DNA from: a virus
Taxonomy: Duplodnaviria; Heunggongvirae; Uroviricota; Caudoviricetes
Strand: one strand, 5' to 3'
Virus record (IMG/VR): IMGVR_UViG_2693429768_000005
Length of the DNA: 55,692 nucleotides
In this document: positions 48,048 to 54,535 of the stretch, in pieces
How positions within the stretch are numbered: position 1 is the stretch's first letter
How the letters are laid out: each line of letters opens with the position of its first letter
Notes under the pieces: model-generated
What the model saw: the letters and a program-made list of their open reading frames with translations, nothing else
Database searches by the model: none
Told to the model about the DNA's origin: nothing
Program-made: the position numbers and the translations under genes

Positions 48048-48178
48048 CCTACCCACCATTCTGTAAATCAAAAATTAGCCACCTGAGAGCGTCTATAACG
48101 CAATAAGACACTGCAACCTGTGCAAACGGGTTACGCGGTGGAATTTTGCGTTGTAGAGCGTTTTACGGAGAAAATACA

Positions 48179-48919
48179 ATGTCTGATTTAATGGTTTTTG
48201 ATGTCGATAGCGAAGTATTAATGATTTCATCGCGTGAAATAGCAGAAGCAACAGGCAAGGATCATTCTTCTGTGGTTGTGCGTGATATTAAAAACATGCT
48301 GATCGATTTAGGGTTTACTGAGCATGATTTTTATCCTGCAAAAATGCAGGATTATGAATTTATAGGGTTTTTGTTTAAGTACAAGCACTACAACGGTCGC
48401 AACGTCATTGATGAGGTTTTGCTAAATAAAGAGCTAACAATGTGCTTGATCACTGGCTATGACGTTAAGCAACGCATGAAGGTAATTAAACGCGTTAAAG
48501 AGTTGGAGGAGGCGCAACACAAACTAGCTTTGCCGGATTTCACTGATCCGGTTGCGGCAGCCCGCGCATGGGCGGATGAGGTAGAGCAAAAATTATTAGT
48601 TAAGCAAGAAAATGAACGGCTTACACTGGTTAACAAACAGCTTGCGCCAAAAGCTGCTGTATGTGACGCGATAGTCAAAAACGATATGCACCGCACGGCT
48701 TCAGAGGTAGCTAAACCGCTGGGAATGTCAGCCGTAAAATTAAACAGAAAACTTTCGGCGGTTGGTGTTTATGATCTTCGCTGTCGCCGCCGTGTATTCA
48801 GTCAGTGGTTTATTGATGAGGGCTACGGTGAAATGAGGGTAACTCACGATGGATATGAGCAGGCTGTATTCACTGCTAAAGGACAAGTATGGATTACTGA
48901 GCTTTTAACTTGTAACTAA
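48179..48919 (+). CDS. phage antirepressor (Rha-like N-domain, KilAC-like C-domain)
   Basis: MSDLMVFD...SREIAEATGKDHSSVVRDI pattern; domain identity recalled from memory. Confidence 0.6.
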   Translation: MSDLMVFDVDSEVLMISSREIAEATGKDHSSVVVRDIKNMLIDLGFTEHDFYPAKMQDYEFIGFLFKYKHYNGRNVIDEVLLNKELTMCLITGYDVKQRMKVIKRVKELEEAQHKLALPDFTDPVAAARAWADEVEQKLLVKQENERLTLVNKQLAPKAAVCDAIVKNDMHRTASEVAKPLGMSAVKLNRKLSAVGVYDLRCRRRVFSQWFIDEGYGEMRVTHDGYEQAVFTAKGQVWITELLTCN

Positions 48920-48953: not shown

Positions 48954-50084
48954 ATGTCACAAAGAAAAATCAGCGATGAGCAATTGATCGCTGAATATAA
49001 CAACGGTTTAACGTACAAGCAGATCGCTGAAAAATATGGCATGTCAAAACGCAACGTCGAGCGGCTAGGCGCAAAACTGGCGAAACGCGGTTTAATATCC
49101 ACGCGTCGCGCACCGGGTTTTGGCGTCAATGCTGAGTCATTGCTCGTCGATAAGGATGGCAATGTGATCATGCGCTGGATTAAAACAGCCCGTGACCGCG
49201 ACGAAATGGAACAGTTAATGGAAGCGGCCCGCGACGCTTTCACGGATGAAATACCACGCGCGGAGGCTGTGCCAGTGCCTGAAATTGATTTTCAAAAAAG
49301 CCTAGCCCTTTATCCGGTGTTTGATCTGCATATCGGGGCGCTTGCTCATAAAGCTGAATGCGGCGAGAGCTACGACACTGGGATCGCTGAGCGCGTGTTG
49401 AATGACTTCTTTGACTACGCTGTTGGCGCTGCTCCGATGTCTGAAAAAGCCGTACTGCTCCTCGGTGGCGATCTGCTTCATTCTGACGGTATGGTCCCGG
49501 TGACGCCAATAAGTGGGCACATTCTTGATCAAGATAGTCGCTACGCAAAACTTGTTTATGTGGCGATCCGGTCTGTCCGGCGGGCGGTAGGTAAAATGTT
49601 GTTAAATCATAAGGATGTTGAAATCCAGGTGTTATCAGGCAATCACGATCAGTCTGGTATGATTTGGCTACGTGCGGCGCTGGCGGCTTTTTACGAAGAT
49701 GAACCGCGCGTGACGGTTGATGTGTCACCTGCTATCGTCCACCACACGCAGTACGGCAAAACATTCCTTGCTTACCACCACGGGCACACTATCAAAAAGC
49801 CGGAAAATTTATTGTCTGCTTGCGTAGCTGACTGGCGTGAGGATTTCGGCAAGTCGAAATATGTTTACGTCCATGTCGGACATTTGCACCATAAATCAGT
49901 AACAGAATCATCTATAGGCATAGTTGAACACCACGGCACGTTAGCGGGCAAAGACGCTTATTCAACTAATGGAGGATGGAGATCGCAACGTTGCGCTGCG
50001 GTTATCCTTTACAGTCCTGATTATGGCGAAATTGGTCGCTTTGTATATAGGCCTGAAATGGTGGGGTGTCATGATGTGGGATGA
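48954..50084 (+). CDS. HTH-metallophosphoesterase fusion protein
   Basis: N-terminal HTH-like LTYKQIAEKYGMSKRNVER; C-terminal phosphoesterase motifs DLH, GDLLH, GNHD, HHGH, GHLHH. Confidence 0.55.
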   Translation: MSQRKISDEQLIAEYNNGLTYKQIAEKYGMSKRNVERLGAKLAKRGLISTRRAPGFGVNAESLLVDKDGNVIMRWIKTARDRDEMEQLMEAARDAFTDEIPRAEAVPVPEIDFQKSLALYPVFDLHIGALAHKAECGESYDTGIAERVLNDFFDYAVGAAPMSEKAVLLLGGDLLHSDGMVPVTPISGHILDQDSRYAKLVYVAIRSVRRAVGKMLLNHKDVEIQVLSGNHDQSGMIWLRAALAAFYEDEPRVTVDVSPAIVHHTQYGKTFLAYHHGHTIKKPENLLSACVADWREDFGKSKYVYVHVGHLHHKSVTESSIGIVEHHGTLAGKDAYSTNGGWRSQRCAAVILYSPDYGEIGRFVYRPEMVGCHDVG

Positions 50085-50577
50085 TTTATTTACATATAGC
50101 GACGGCGTTCTATATTGGTCTTGTAACCGTGCAAATAACAAAATAAAAGCAGGTAGCGTGGCTGGATGTAAACATTATCGCGGATATTGGACTGTACGCG
50201 TTAATGGTATTTGTTGCACATGGCGTCACCGCATTATCTGGGAAATGTTTAACGGCCCTATTCCTGATGGAATGGAAATAGATCACATAAATCATATACC
50301 TGGTGACGATAGAATCGAAAACTTAAGGATGGTGACAAGGAAGGAGAATAACAGAAACAAAACAATGCCATCAAGTAATACTAGCGGATGCGTTGGCGTT
50401 ACGTGGAACAAGAAAACCAATAAATGGCGTGCGCAAATAGGTATAAGGGGGTCTGATGGGAAAAAGAAAACAATATACGTTTATTACGGTGACTCATTTG
50501 ATGATGCCGTAAAAGCAAGAAAAGAAGCTGAAAGAATGTATAACTTTCATAGCAATCACGGTATTTCTTTACCCTGA
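50071..50577 (+). CDS. HNH homing-type endonuclease with AP2 domain (second copy)
   Basis: HRIIWEMFNGPIPDGMEIDHINH plus AP2-like GVTWNKKTNKWRAQI; start overlaps upstream stop. Confidence 0.8.
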   Translation: MMWDDLFTYSDGVLYWSCNRANNKIKAGSVAGCKHYRGYWTVRVNGICCTWRHRIIWEMFNGPIPDGMEIDHINHIPGDDRIENLRMVTRKENNRNKTMPSSNTSGCVGVTWNKKTNKWRAQIGIRGSDGKKKTIYVYYGDSFDDAVKARKEAERMYNFHSNHGISLP

Positions 50578-50611: not shown

Positions 50612-52027
50612 ATGGTAACTGAGCAAATGAACTCACTACGGCAGGAACGTGAAGCGTCAGTTATCGGCGGGCTGCTGTTAGGCGGCCTAACTCCTAACGC
50701 ACAAGATGTTCTCGCCACTCTTGATCCTGAAGTGTTCACGATTCCGCTGTATAAACGTGCGTTTGAAGTTATCCGGGCGCAAGCCAGAAACAGAAATCTT
50801 ATCGACGCGTTATTGGTTGGCGATGAGATTGGCAATGAAAACTTTGTACCGCTAATGCAAACGGCGCGATCGTGCCCGTCTGCTGCCAACCTGAAGGGAT
50901 ACGCACAGCTACTACGTGAAGAGCACCAGCGGCGGCAGATGTTGGAACTCATCGACGATATGCGCTACAAACTGGAAACGGGGACGCTTGAGGTCGTCAA
51001 AGAGACGATGAAAGACTTTGATTCCCGGTATTCAAAATTGAAGGTAACGAAAGACAAGATCATTCCGGTGTTGTTGCGCGATGCGGTACAGGAATACACG
51101 GAGGTGTTAAGCAAACGCATGGAATGCGGTGTCAATTCTGACAACATCAAAACAGGGATAGAACCACTCGACGAAATGTTAGGCGGCATTAACGCTACTG
51201 ATCTGGTGCTTCTCGCCGGGCGCCCTGGGTCTGGTAAATCTGCGTTGGCGCTGGCAATTGCCCGCGCTGCTGCTGAACGCCCTTACCCTGGCAGCAAGGA
51301 TCAGCGGGTTGGCGTTTTGTTCTTCACGCTTGAAATGTCACTCGATCAGATGACTGAACGCGCTATAGCTGGCGCTGGTAATTTATCAACCGACTGTCTG
51401 CGTAATCCGGTAAAACTTGATGATGAGGGGTGGGCGCATGTTGGTCAGGGTATGAGCGCACTTGCTAATCTTGACGTGTGGATCGTTGACGCATCGCAGT
51501 TAACGGTTGAGGAAATACGCGCCACAACGGAACGGATGAAACAGGAGCATCCCAACCTGGGTATGGTAATGATTGACTACATCGGGTTGATGAAGCTGGC
51601 TAAGGCTGAACGTCATGATCTCGCCGTAGGGCAATTATCATGGTCGTTGAAGATGATGGCGAAAGAATTGCGCGTACCGGTGTTGGCGCTGGCGCAATTA
51701 TCCCGCCGCGTTGAGGAACGACCGAACAAGCGTCCTAACAATTCTGATCTGCGCGATTCCGGTAATCTTGAGCAGGACGCTGACAGGATAATCATGGTAT
51801 ACCGCGATGGCTACTACGATGAGCAGTCTGTAGCCCGCGAATATATGGAAATCATTGTATCTAAAAACCGTCACGGCAAATCTGGCACTGTTTACCAGCG
51901 GTTTGATGACAACGGCAATATCTTACCATGCGACCAGGCCCGCGCGGCTGCGGCGTGTATTCAGTCTATGAATCATCGTACAAGCAGATTTAACCAACGA
52001 AACAACCAGAATAACGCATCCTTTTAA
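50612..52027 (+). CDS. replicative DNA helicase (DnaB family)
   Basis: 471 aa; Walker A GRPGSGKS, DnaB-like N- and C-domains. Confidence 0.85.
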   Translation: MVTEQMNSLRQEREASVIGGLLLGGLTPNAQDVLATLDPEVFTIPLYKRAFEVIRAQARNRNLIDALLVGDEIGNENFVPLMQTARSCPSAANLKGYAQLLREEHQRRQMLELIDDMRYKLETGTLEVVKETMKDFDSRYSKLKVTKDKIIPVLLRDAVQEYTEVLSKRMECGVNSDNIKTGIEPLDEMLGGINATDLVLLAGRPGSGKSALALAIARAAAERPYPGSKDQRVGVLFFTLEMSLDQMTERAIAGAGNLSTDCLRNPVKLDDEGWAHVGQGMSALANLDVWIVDASQLTVEEIRATTERMKQEHPNLGMVMIDYIGLMKLAKAERHDLAVGQLSWSLKMMAKELRVPVLALAQLSRRVEERPNKRPNNSDLRDSGNLEQDADRIIMVYRDGYYDEQSVAREYMEIIVSKNRHGKSGTVYQRFDDNGNILPCDQARAAAACIQSMNHRTSRFNQRNNQNNASF

Positions 52028-52103
52028 TCAATATGAGCAAACGGCTTACCAGAAAGTTTACCGCTTTCTGGTGGCTGTTATCGCGTTTAAAGCGAGGCTG
52101 AAA

Positions 52104-52631
52104 ATGAAAACTTCATACCAACAACAAATAATTGATTTTTTAAATGACGCTGTTATTTCAGGTGAGGGAACGATAGTTAAATCTATTCCTGGGCCGGAAG
52201 GTGAAATAATTTGCGCTTTGGATGCTTTAGTTTCTGATGGCGTTATTATCAAAGTAGATCTAAATAGTAAAAGATTATCATATTGCTTGAAGTCAGTAAG
52301 AGAAATGGCGATAAGGGATATAATCCCTTTGTTTTCAAATAGTAGCGGGTATTTTTCAGCGGAAGATGTTAAAAATGAATTGAATATTAATATAAACAAA
52401 GGAAAGGTCGGGAGAATATTGCGGATGTTAGGAAGTGAGAACCTATTAACTGTTAATAAGTTTGACGGTAAATATTTTTTCAGAAACGCGCGTTTTTATG
52501 GTTATTCAAATGTTATCGCATTTAATTTTAGTAACTTATTAAACGAATACCGTAAAAATAACGGCCTGCTACCGGATAAACCAATATTTGAGATCGAAAA
52601 ACTTAACGGCGAAACGGGGTTGGAATTATGA
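52104..52631 (+). CDS. hypothetical protein in AT-rich island (possible tandem winged-helix)
   Basis: by-eye composition markedly more AT-rich than flanks; no enzymatic motif. Confidence 0.4.
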   Translation: MKTSYQQQIIDFLNDAVISGEGTIVKSIPGPEGEIICALDALVSDGVIIKVDLNSKRLSYCLKSVREMAIRDIIPLFSNSSGYFSAEDVKNELNININKGKVGRILRMLGSENLLTVNKFDGKYFFRNARFYGYSNVIAFNFSNLLNEYRKNNGLLPDKPIFEIEKLNGETGLEL

Positions 52632-52834
52632 GACGGGTAATTTTTTATTCAGTTGAAACGTTTGTCGACGATACGCGCGTTTATTATCCGTGGGAAGTAT
52701 ACGACGCAAAGGTGTATACACCGCCACTGATGCGGAAATATAAACACGTAAAATTTAACCGGGTTTTCGTGCCAATGCGCGATGCATTACGGGCGCTGCG
52801 TGGGGAATTAAGAAACACAATGCGGATTGTGTAA
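52628..52834 (+). CDS. hypothetical protein (68 aa)
   Basis: ORF coupled to previous. Confidence 0.35.
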   Translation: MRRVIFYSVETFVDDTRVYYPWEVYDAKVYTPPLMRKYKHVKFNRVFVPMRDALRALRGELRNTMRIV

Positions 52835-52843
52835 GGGGGAATC

Positions 52844-53071
52844 ATGAACAAGGATTTAGAATTGACCGTGGAGGATTTAAGCACGATCGCGGAATACAAG
52901 CGCGGCGGTGATCCTGATAAACCTGTTACGGTTGATATGAAATATTTAAAAGGCGCTTTTATGACTTCTTCAAGATTGATAAGTCTTAAAGCAATTATAA
53001 AGGCGCGCTGGGAAAGTTGGCAGGAATACAAAGCGAAAAATAAGGTGAAAAGAAATAATGCGGCAAATTAG
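52844..53071 (+). CDS. hypothetical protein (75 aa)
   Basis: ORF. Confidence 0.35.
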   Translation: MNKDLELTVEDLSTIAEYKRGGDPDKPVTVDMKYLKGAFMTSSRLISLKAIIKARWESWQEYKAKNKVKRNNAAN

Positions 53072-53486
53072 ATTTGAGATAGTCAACGACGCCGTGAAAG
53101 AAAACGCTATCAGGCAGATAAGAGAGATCCAGCCTGATAGCAAAAGCCCGCTGATAATTACCATCCAGGAGAAAACCCGCTCGCTAAGCCAAAACGCGTT
53201 GCTTTGGGCGCTGTTAACCGACATTAGCGATCAGGTTAATTGGTACGGTAAGAAGCTGTCGCCGGAAGACTGGAAAGCGGTATTTACTGCCGGGCTTAAG
53301 AAATATGGCGTCGTCCCTAACCTGGATAAATCCGGCTTTGTTGTATTGGGGACATCAACCAGCCGGATGAGTAAATCAGAATTCAGTGAACTAATCGAGC
53401 TGATCTACTCGTTCGGCGCTGAACATGATGTTCAATGGTCTGGCGATACGAAATTAAACGAGGAATTCATAAAACGCTGGGGGTAA
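53058..53486 (+). CDS. ninB: NinB (Orf-family recombination mediator)
   Basis: aligns to lambda NinB: ...IQEKTRSLSQNALLWALL.DIS.QV.W.G...VPNL...GFVVLG.STSRM...EF.ELIELI..FG. Confidence 0.8.
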   Translation: MRQIRFEIVNDAVKENAIRQIREIQPDSKSPLIITIQEKTRSLSQNALLWALLTDISDQVNWYGKKLSPEDWKAVFTAGLKKYGVVPNLDKSGFVVLGTSTSRMSKSEFSELIELIYSFGAEHDVQWSGDTKLNEEFIKRWG

Positions 53487-53488
53487 TA

Positions 53489-53665
53489 ATGGCGCGTTAT
53501 TACATGGCTAAACCTACAGGAATTTTGTATAAGGTTGATGGCGAATATGTTTATTACTTCCACAACCAGGCGCGGGAGTGGCGATTGTGTCACGCGCACT
53601 TCAAGCACGAAATAGAAAATCACCCTGAATACTTTATCAAAGTTGACAATGTAACGGTGGCGTAA
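53489..53665 (+). CDS. hypothetical protein (58 aa)
   Basis: ATG 3 bp after ninB stop. Confidence 0.35.
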   Translation: MARYYMAKPTGILYKVDGEYVYYFHNQAREWRLCHAHFKHEIENHPEYFIKVDNVTVA

Positions 53666-53666
53666 T

Positions 53667-54317
53667 ATGGCAAATAAAACACCTCGTGCAATAGGCACAA
53701 TGTTCCACCGCTTCCGTGGTGATATTCAGCCTTTTGAAGTAACCACGTTTTCAAGTTATTACGATTTTGGGACGGAGTATTACGCCGGATCTAAGGTAGG
53801 CGGTGAATCTTATACGCTGATGGCTAATACGTGGCGCTTTGTGCGTTACTCTGAAAAGGATGGTGACGGTATGAATAAAGAAAGTGAAATCATTGATGAA
53901 TTAATCGAAGATGAGCGCCATGATTGCGATGCGCCGGAAGTTACGGAATGGAAACCAGGAGAAAAGCCGCCGTGCGGCGTGTGGCTTGATTGTATTGGAT
54001 TAGCAAGTGATAGAGTGATTGATGTCGTTAAGTTTTTCTACCTGGGCGATAAGTGGTCTATTGCTCACAGTAAGTTAGAAACGGGTATAGAAACACCGAT
54101 TGCATGGAAACAATACTCATACCGCATTCACATTGACCCGAAAGAAAAAGCAATGACACGAATTGCGTTTGCGCTGGCTGTTGAGGTTATTGGTGGAGAT
54201 GCGGCAAAAGAGATTAACTTTAACCGCGACAACGAATTTTCGCGCGATTGGCGCAATATGGCAAAAGCCATTATTAATGGCGATATTCCTTTTACTAATT
54301 ACAATGGTGATGAGTAA
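53667..54317 (+). CDS. hypothetical protein (216 aa)
   Basis: ORF; no domain recognised. Confidence 0.4.
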   Translation: MANKTPRAIGTMFHRFRGDIQPFEVTTFSSYYDFGTEYYAGSKVGGESYTLMANTWRFVRYSEKDGDGMNKESEIIDELIEDERHDCDAPEVTEWKPGEKPPCGVWLDCIGLASDRVIDVVKFFYLGDKWSIAHSKLETGIETPIAWKQYSYRIHIDPKEKAMTRIAFALAVEVIGGDAAKEINFNRDNEFSRDWRNMAKAIINGDIPFTNYNGDE

Positions 54318-54535
54318 TGGATAAGATCGGGACAATACTTATTAACCGTGAGCAAGTGCAAAAAATGTTAGGCGGGCTTAGCAAGTCCGCCTTTTTTAAG
54401 CTCGTTAAAAAATGGAAAGAAGCGGGAACTCCTTTCCCTGAACCTGTAAAGGGGATGCCAGCATTAAAGCGCGGGGGATCTCTTTACCGTTATCAGGACG
54501 TTATTTCATTTTGTAAATCGATGGGCTTCATGTAG
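54317..54535 (+). CDS. excisionase/AlpA-like HTH protein
   Basis: 72 aa; adjacent to integrase; HTH-like INREQVQKMLGGLSKSAFFKLVKK. Confidence 0.45.
   Translation: MDKIGTILINREQVQKMLGGLSKSAFFKLVKKWKEAGTPFPEPVKGMPALKRGGSLYRYQDVISFCKSMGFM

Follow-up and report, generated by a model that had tools for sequence, protein, structure and literature searches.

Lambdoid O genes combine a type-specific N-terminal DNA-binding module with a conserved C-terminal partner part, and recombination between the two yields hybrids, while lambda Ren is a small protein that protects lambda against Rex exclusion. Ren has been described as a likely participant in replication that interacts with the Rex proteins (bioRxiv 10.1101/2021.04.19.439022). 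Small phage-derived loaders of DnaB helicases, among them SPP1 G39P, Vibrio VdhL1/2, and DciA, carry a folded domain together with disordered regions, and it is common for a loader to be displaced by a non-homologous one (PMC11087808). Closest to the gene analyzed here are mEp021 gp08 (AXN54127) and its homologues in mEp010, mEp013, mEp044, mEp515, mEp554, and MagusPhagus, all uncharacterised hypothetical proteins of the mEpimmI phage group (PMC11893012). Here we describe orf175, a gene encoding a tandem winged-helix protein in a 55,692-nucleotide stretch of Caudoviricetes DNA (IMG/VR record IMGVR_UViG_2693429768_000005), hereafter the window. orf175 is a new member of this uncharacterised but catalogued gene family, distinguished by a low guanine-plus-cytosine (GC) content. 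Its parts are as follows, with wH1 and wH2 denoting the two winged helices and A, A2, and B the allele classes defined below.

52094 to 52097, plus strand: Shine-Dalgarno sequence GAGG, 6 nt ahead of the ATG at 52104, read from the sequence.
52104 to 52631, plus strand: orf175, tandem winged-helix protein of 175 amino acids (aa), allele A of the mEp021 gp08 family (AlphaFold2, BLASTP).
52104 to 52540, plus strand: AT-rich unit (GC 0.32), the low-GC allelic cassette that codes for the wH1-wH2 module.
52541 to 52631, plus strand: segment coding for the C-terminal peptide LNEYRKNNGLLPDKP(I/V)FEIEKLNGETGLEL, invariant across A, A2, and B; right-hand conserved flank and recombination junction.

orf175 displays all of the hallmarks of the gp08 family, namely sequence similarity, a fixed position, and the invariant C-terminal peptide LNEYRKNNGLLPDKPVFEIEKLN.... 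BLASTP aligns gp08 with orf175 at E = 2e-23 over aa 73–175 only, the match is reciprocal in protein searches, and gp08 is also the top structural match of orf175 in BFVD. The homologues use the equivalent ATG, and the same 175-aa open reading frame (ORF) is annotated by PGAP in strain MIN12. Every relative examined (7 deposited phages, 35 of 5426 complete E. coli genomes, 41 IMG/VR contigs, and 22 metagenome contigs) contains an ORF of 175–189 aa right after dnaB, followed by the same two small genes, orf68 and orf75, and then by ninB; a dnaB-type gene is the immediate upstream neighbor in all related loci inspected. Because they occupy the same position in every relative, orf175, orf68, and orf75 are conserved backbone genes rather than presence/absence morons. 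The initial annotation, made from the letters of the window alone, had described these three ORFs as an inserted AT-rich island between the helicase gene and ninB. The ORFs are present as described and form a tight operon, with an ATGA overlap between orf175 and orf68 and an overlap between orf75 and ninB, and the site lies where it was placed, directly downstream of the DnaB-type gene and ahead of ninB; the notion of an inserted three-gene island did not survive, since all three genes sit at this place in every relative and only the winged-helix part is low in GC.

Searches recovered five matches among 1.84 billion representative proteins, of which two are fragments and one, a repeat protein of 1813 aa (P0027), was rejected as a homologue because its low-complexity similarity to the tail was judged spurious. 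One genome each of 185,579 species gave no match to the family. Outside the mEp021-like phage group, the family is essentially absent.

The ORF at 52104–52631 has a GC content of 0.331, while the window as a whole stands at 0.464. The 500 bp with the lowest GC in the entire 55.7 kb fall within this ORF (z = −3.7), and only 0.05% of 528-bp windows reach a GC as low, so the deviation, first estimated by eye, is significant on calculation. Low GC in the AT-rich unit touches all three codon positions (GC at positions one to three of 0.37/0.32/0.27), while the long ORFs of the window average 0.47 at the third position. The AT-rich unit spans ~52100–52540, the 5′ 83% of the 175-codon ORF, and not 52104–53071: the last 90 nt of orf175 have a GC of 0.39, orf68 (52628–52834) is ordinary at 0.44, and orf75 (52844–53071) stands at 0.39. 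The AT-richness initially described for about 1 kb is thus real and marks the minimum of the window, but its extent shrinks to ~52100–52540, and orf68 and orf75 are not part of it. Promoter-like sites are fewer in the AT-rich DNA than expected from shuffled sequence.

The family falls into three allele classes: A, found in the window; A2, with 69% aa identity to A and a GC of 36%; and B, with ~35% identity and a GC of 44% (0.43–0.46) versus 32% for A. At the DNA level, other A cassettes match that of the window closely, A2 cassettes match at ~72%, and B cassettes are unalignable. Among the 35 complete E. coli genomes, 7 carry A, 3 carry A2, and 25 carry B, whereas all seven deposited phages carry B and none A. 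No class beyond these three was found among the IMG/VR (41) and JGI/ENA metagenome (22) contigs, the species genomes, or the representative proteins. The cassette of the window is 100% identical to that of four E. coli prophages.

Relative to B alleles, the borders of the cassette are sharp, at ~52100 and ~52540, with unalignable DNA in the interior and alignable DNA on both flanks; relatives are almost identical in DNA as far as the orf175 start codon and once more from ~52540 on. The window itself records such an exchange. It is ~100% identical to the prophage of strain MIN12 (NZ_CP069657) over ~38 kb, from ~14.4 kb to 52564, without a mismatch from at least 51900 to 52564. Against MagusPhagus, it shows one mismatch over 52643–53200 and then 92–100% identity through ninB to the integrase, at ~55.6 kb. 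The parent genome therefore switches at 52565–52642, and the window is a recent mosaic with a crossover in the tail-coding segment of orf175. Because the borders are sharp and the window switches parent in the tail segment, the AT-rich unit is an allelic cassette exchanged by homologous recombination and not an inserted moron. Exchange occurs in the conserved flanks, that is, in the upstream hairpin spacer and in the tail-coding segment, and the case is one of ordinary mosaic allele exchange.

The low-GC lineage is not young. Synonymous sites are saturated or near saturation between A and A2 (proportion of synonymous differences, pS, 0.68), and purifying selection acts on the winged-helix module inside each class, with ratios of nonsynonymous to synonymous differences (pN/pS) of 0.02–0.16. 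Together these values indicate that the lineage is old, functional, and diversified, and not a late arrival whose base composition has still to approach that of the host. Its low GC would be the record of a long residence of the allele lineage in an unsampled, AT-richer gene pool rather than of a recent insertion. Recent horizontal acquisition, as proposed in the initial annotation, is contradicted by the age of the lineage and by the allelic replacement of a GC-normal homologue. That annotation had also named homologues that are conserved core replication proteins as a ground for refuting it; the homologues are conserved and fixed in position, and a replication function is putative.

The C-terminal 30 residues (LNEYRKNNGLLPDKPVFEIEKLNGETGLEL) are invariant in all classes and subject to strong purifying selection, with a pN/pS of 0.08 at a pS of 0.27. 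Since synonymous sites vary while the peptide does not, constraint acts on the tail peptide and not on the DNA. The tail is predicted to be disordered in models of both A and B. Between classes, the tail-coding segment has a pS of ~0.39–0.43, much less diverged than the cassette, and behaves as shared backbone and as a crossover site. In a few B alleles (MagusPhagus, L001 4501–5049; L046; P0024), a 1-nt deletion near the 3′ end shortens the tail, which then ends in ...KLNGERG, and abolishes the ATGA overlap; the last six tail residues and the overlap with orf68 are therefore dispensable.

The AlphaFold2 model of allele A (mean confidence score, pLDDT, 77.5) places wH1 at residues 3–62, linker helices at 63–78, wH2 at 86–128, a further helix at 137–151, and the disordered tail at 152–175. 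The model of allele B has the same plan, with two winged helices, a helix, and a disordered C-terminal tail, and wH1 adopts the same predicted fold in A and B, yet without detectable sequence similarity. In A and A2, sequence and predicted secondary structure indicate an acidic recognition helix in wH1 and a basic one in wH2. Fold searches also return the winged-helix fold, so that the two winged-helix segments noticed from the letters are upheld by model and fold searches alike. The lack of any enzymatic motif is likewise supported. Sequence profiles from Pfam, NCBIfam, and the PDB gave sub-threshold winged-helix matches only, and PADLOC models did not match orf175, orf68, orf75, or the B allele.

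We assign a probability of about 0.5 to a joint account in which orf175 is an old low-GC allele of a conserved post-dnaB gene, exchanged as a recombining cassette and encoding a tail-docking, nucleic-acid-binding adaptor of the replication/recombination module. The protein would act there as a modular adaptor. Its winged-helix module would bind nucleic acid, wH2 through its basic recognition helix, while for wH1 of A and A2, whose recognition helix is acidic, protein may be the target instead. A partner conserved across the group, with the adjacent phage DnaB and the translationally coupled Orf68 as leading candidates, would be the docking site of the invariant disordered tail. We favor an adaptor because the gene is present throughout and always next to dnaB, because a variable folded module is joined to an invariant tail, because of the coupling to orf68, and because loaders offer a documented precedent. 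No other helicase-loader candidate was found among 11 right-operon ORFs, of which 10 were scanned with Pfam and PHROGs and the 46429–46761 gene with NCBIfam only, the KilAC-like ORF (48146–48919) and the leftward operon being left out of the scan.

Several observations weigh against this account. The winged-helix module of the A allele is nearly neutral (K+R 17, D+E 15), which is weak for a DNA binder, and no specific homology ties orf175 to the helicase or to DNA binding, adjacency to dnaB being only suggestive. Known loader genes of phages usually precede the helicase gene rather than follow it. orf175 showed no fold similarity to a known non-AAA+ loader (G39P, VdhL, DciA, or lambda P). In a whole-genome comparison of the window and MIN12 (A), 2017C (A2), and MagusPhagus and mEp021 (both B), neither DnaB nor the initiator genes nor any other phage segment tracks allele class, and within ±4 kb the cassette alone separates the classes. 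A phage-specific partner or site for the winged-helix module, if there is one, did not come to light. Moreover, no low-GC donor was found in IMG/VR, the JGI/ENA metagenome contigs, the 185,579 species genomes, or the 1.84 billion proteins. The strongest candidate for a cognate site, at 31350–31850, was rejected; among the 35 E. coli prophages, it is present in 7 of 10 A or A2 genomes and in 3 of 25 B genomes, and is missing in three A genomes.

It is conceivable but unlikely that orf175 encodes a MarR- or Lrp/AsnC-type transcription regulator working on its own, with every allele recognizing a separate operator in the phage or the host genome and tuning early, late, or lysogeny genes. MarR and Lrp/AsnC are the current database labels, and both families share the winged helix-turn-helix fold with orf175. 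However, the gathering score is not attained with any of the Pfam models for MarR, HTH_24, or AsnC: for MarR (PF01047/PF12802), A, A2, and B have no Pfam match, and phrog_1687 alone matches, at E = 0.02, the window protein; for Lrp/AsnC, HTH_24 appears below threshold in B alleles only, and the PDB profile match to an Lrp-type helix-turn-helix (HTH) has E = 0.44. The architectures also differ, since MarR proteins hold a single winged HTH between N- and C-terminal dimerization helices and Lrp/AsnC proteins join HTH_24 to a C-terminal RAM domain (AsnC_trans_reg), whereas the gp08 family lacks both the dimerization helices and any RAM or ligand domain, and orf175 is modeled on a monomer plan of two consecutive winged helices followed by a disordered tail, which a regulator leaves unexplained. 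A cognate operator should vary in step with allele class, which no phage segment does, and a palindrome within the A cassette (52439–52463) has no equivalent in B alleles. The group, finally, already has a repressor, an N-like protein, and a Q-like regulator (window scans; PMC11893012). An activator of late genes was discarded, the Q-like gene being present elsewhere in the phage. It is rather doubtful that orf175 is instead an anti-exclusion or anti-defense factor in the role of lambda Ren, its deep allelic diversity reflecting different host or prophage targets. The gene order dnaB-orf175-...-ninB matches O-P-ren-ninB of lambda; the neighborhood takes accessory genes, such as a methyltransferase gene just before ninB in mEp021; the Ren pattern, read from translation, looks like a single winged helix, and some truncated Ren homologues are labeled MarR family; and the failure of any phage-internal target to co-vary with allele class fits an external one. 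B alleles match phrog_142 ("Ren-like exclusion protein") weakly, at E = 2e-4 to 4e-3, whereas allele A gave no such match, and hhalign of Ren against the family alignments returned a probability of 4.9% (E = 0.008) over the generic winged-helix core only. The gene is always present rather than patchy, purifying selection within classes (pN/pS 0.02–0.16) shows no diversifying sign, and PADLOC found nothing. The anti-defense role initially suggested by the location near ninB is therefore not supported, with no PADLOC match and no significant homology to Ren, and is retained as a rival of low probability.

Two further explanations take the AT-richness itself as their starting point. A lambda-O-like or iteron-plasmid-Rep-like initiator with its origin, composed of repeats and an AT-rich unwinding element, inside its own gene would account for an AT-rich gene that adjoins the helicase gene; tandem winged helices are the fold of the RepA, RepE, and pi initiators, the N-terminal domain of lambda O is a winged helix, and a type-specific N-terminal module joined to a conserved C-terminal partner-binding part mirrors lambda O. 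An origin within orf175 was nevertheless rejected, since no iterons were found and repeats are at shuffle level in the A, A2, and B cassettes, and we regard an initiator as very improbable. A recently acquired foreign three-gene island would explain a composition that deviates strongly at all codon positions (GC 0.32–0.33, z = −3.7), but synteny and homology with GC-normal alleles, the restriction of the deviation to one partial gene, the age of a lineage split into A and A2, the lack of a donor, and the absence of presence/absence polymorphism at a locus where variation is allelic and the gene is always present leave this explanation barely tenable. The adaptor of the replication/recombination module thus stays our preferred account. 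A bolder version holds that the gp08 family is a new accessory factor of phage DnaB helicases, or else a two-domain Ren analogue directed against exclusion systems, which we put forward very tentatively and consider improbable. As an accessory factor, a tandem winged-helix adaptor or loader would dock on the helicase or on Orf68 through its tail, and the winged-helix module would be swapped among phages as a specificity cassette.

The remaining features of the locus are as follows.

50612 to 52027, plus strand: dnaB, DnaB-type replicative helicase of 471 aa (Pfam DnaB_C, E = 8e-76; DnaB N-terminal domain, E = 5e-12; phrog_19).
52040 to 52079, plus strand: RNA hairpin in the dnaB-orf175 spacer, with a 17-bp stem, one bulge, and a 5-nt loop, from the fold of 52028–52110.
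52439 to 52463, no strand assigned: near-perfect palindrome GAACCTATTAAC-T-GTTAATAAGTTT in the A cassette, coding for ENLLTVNKF at the start of the wH2 beta-wing.
52628 to 52834, plus strand: orf68, small basic protein of 68 aa, conserved, translationally coupled to orf175 through an ATGA overlap with its stop.
52844 to 53071, plus strand: orf75, small protein of 65 or 75 aa, depending on the C-terminal length variant, with the end of the gene overlapping the start of ninB.
53058 to 53486, plus strand: ninB, Orf-family recombination mediator (Pfam NinB, E = 1e-46; phrog_72, E = 1e-43).

The fold of the spacer (52028–52110) has a predicted energy of −29.9 kcal/mol (z = −4.7; 0 of 200 shuffles as stable), and the hairpin occurs in 30 of 30 distinct spacer sequences from ~47 loci, with stem changes that are mostly wobble-compatible (A-U to G-U) and a U-rich run (UUUU) behind it in most relatives. 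This left-hand conserved flank of the cassette resembles a site of transcript termination or processing. Possible roles are an RNase III site or, by analogy with lambda tR2, a terminator through which the N-like Gp17 system reads; a simple terminator scan did not flag 52040–52079. The hairpin is without annotation in the mEp021 record. No repeat in any cassette other than the palindrome at 52439–52463 exceeds shuffle level. In A2, the equivalent site holds a perfect 12+12 palindrome, where a C..G pair has become T..A at synonymous positions. An operator or a hairpin is conceivable, as is a side effect of AT-biased codon choice in the ENLLTVNKF stretch. A third copy of an AACYTATTAA motif at 52533 was dropped, as it is not conserved in A2.

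Both orf68 and orf75 are genuine coding genes, conserved and ordinary in base composition. orf68 is 68 aa long in 43 of 47 loci, with a pN/pS of 0.25, and has no Pfam, PHROG, NCBIfam, or PADLOC match; orf75 matches phrog_21123, which has no function label (E = 1e-9), and has a pN/pS of 0.19. Phage annotators call orf68, whereas PGAP leaves it unannotated in the E. coli prophages inspected (e.g., NZ_CP069657), and it is probably a small gene systematically missed by annotation.

By sequence comparison, the window is an mEp021-like temperate coliphage of the mEpimmI group that sits as a prophage in E. coli. Positions 50612–54535 are 93.5% identical to MagusPhagus and 87–91% identical to mEp013, mEp010, mEp044, mEp554, mEp515, and mEp021, and positions 1–1576 match E. 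coli strain 2017C-4173W12 at 97.5%, which covers the abgT-side flank and the prophage end. abgT itself takes up approximately the first 1443 bases (~1–1443). Since the left end covers an abgT fragment and the adjoining prophage end, the window begins outside the prophage, and this match fits the abgT integration site given for the type II integrases of the mEpimmI group (PMC11893012).

The early operon that contains 52104–53071 leads out of the repressor region, through the replication genes and ninB, to xis. It begins with a small winged-HTH protein, a Lin1244/DnaD-like replisome organizer, and a variable antirepressor slot, continues with a 376-aa HTH-phosphoesterase, an HNH endonuclease, DnaB, orf175, orf68, orf75, and NinB, and ends with two ORFs without assignment, an xis-like gene, and a convergent integrase gene. 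The opposite strand encodes N-like, Erf, SSB, NinG, RusA, and Q-like proteins together with lysis and structural genes. The variable slot (48146–48919), upstream of the phosphoesterase gene, holds a KilAC antirepressor-like gene in the window and in MIN12, and Rha-family or zinc-ribbon genes, or nothing alignable, in other relatives. All relatives encode the conserved 376-aa protein (48954–50084), with an N-terminal HTH and a metallophosphoesterase-like body (phrog_704, "DNA repair exonuclease"), at a site flanked by the initiator genes and dnaB. An HNH-AP2 homing-endonuclease gene (49969–50577) overlaps the 3′ end of the phosphoesterase gene and lies between it and dnaB; among four compared genomes, it occurs in mEp021 only (98%) and is absent from MIN12, 2017C, and MagusPhagus, and it appears to be a mobile insertion. 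mEp021 also carries an extra N4/N6 DNA methyltransferase gene, gp05 (L002 5473–6210), between its orf65/75 homologue and ninB, which identifies a true accessory-gene slot just upstream of ninB (~53058 in the window). The AT-rich orf175 does not lie within this slot.

At this locus, AT-richness beside ninB marks an old allelic cassette in a conserved backbone gene and not an anti-defense moron, which corrects a tempting misreading. The cassette belongs to a compact orphan family confined to one group of gut coliphages, in which a variable winged-helix module is coupled to an invariant disordered peptide, and both mEp021 and E. coli K-12 make the family accessible to genetics. If the tail does bind the phage helicase, orf175 would represent a new kind of helicase accessory factor and a further non-homologous entry in the growing list of loaders; otherwise, it is an ordinary uncharacterised winged-helix protein.

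Among known systems, lambda Ren (phrog_142) is, like orf175, a small protein with a winged-helix fold whose gene stands between replication genes and ninB, within an early operon under N antitermination; Ren, however, is 96 aa long, appears to contain just one winged helix, and has no counterpart of the invariant tail. Like G39P, VdhL, and DciA, orf175 joins a small folded domain to disordered regions; those proteins are phage-encoded or phage-derived, vary in their parts between species, and work with DnaB-type helicases (PMC11087808). Their folds differ, G39P and VdhL being helical and DciA KH-like whereas orf175 is a tandem winged helix, and the orf175 gene lies downstream of the helicase gene, unlike those of the loaders. 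With lambda O and other lambdoid initiators, orf175 shares modular allelic exchange between a variable N-terminal module and a conserved C-terminal part, although it has no sequence homology to them, its gene contains no iterons or origin, and the phage has a separate initiator. mEp021 gp08, whose winged-helix module is ~35% identical, with no detectable similarity in wH1 and a GC of 44% versus 32%, is 10 aa longer than orf175, and the two share the slot after dnaB, the downstream genes, the architecture, and an identical C-terminal 30 aa.

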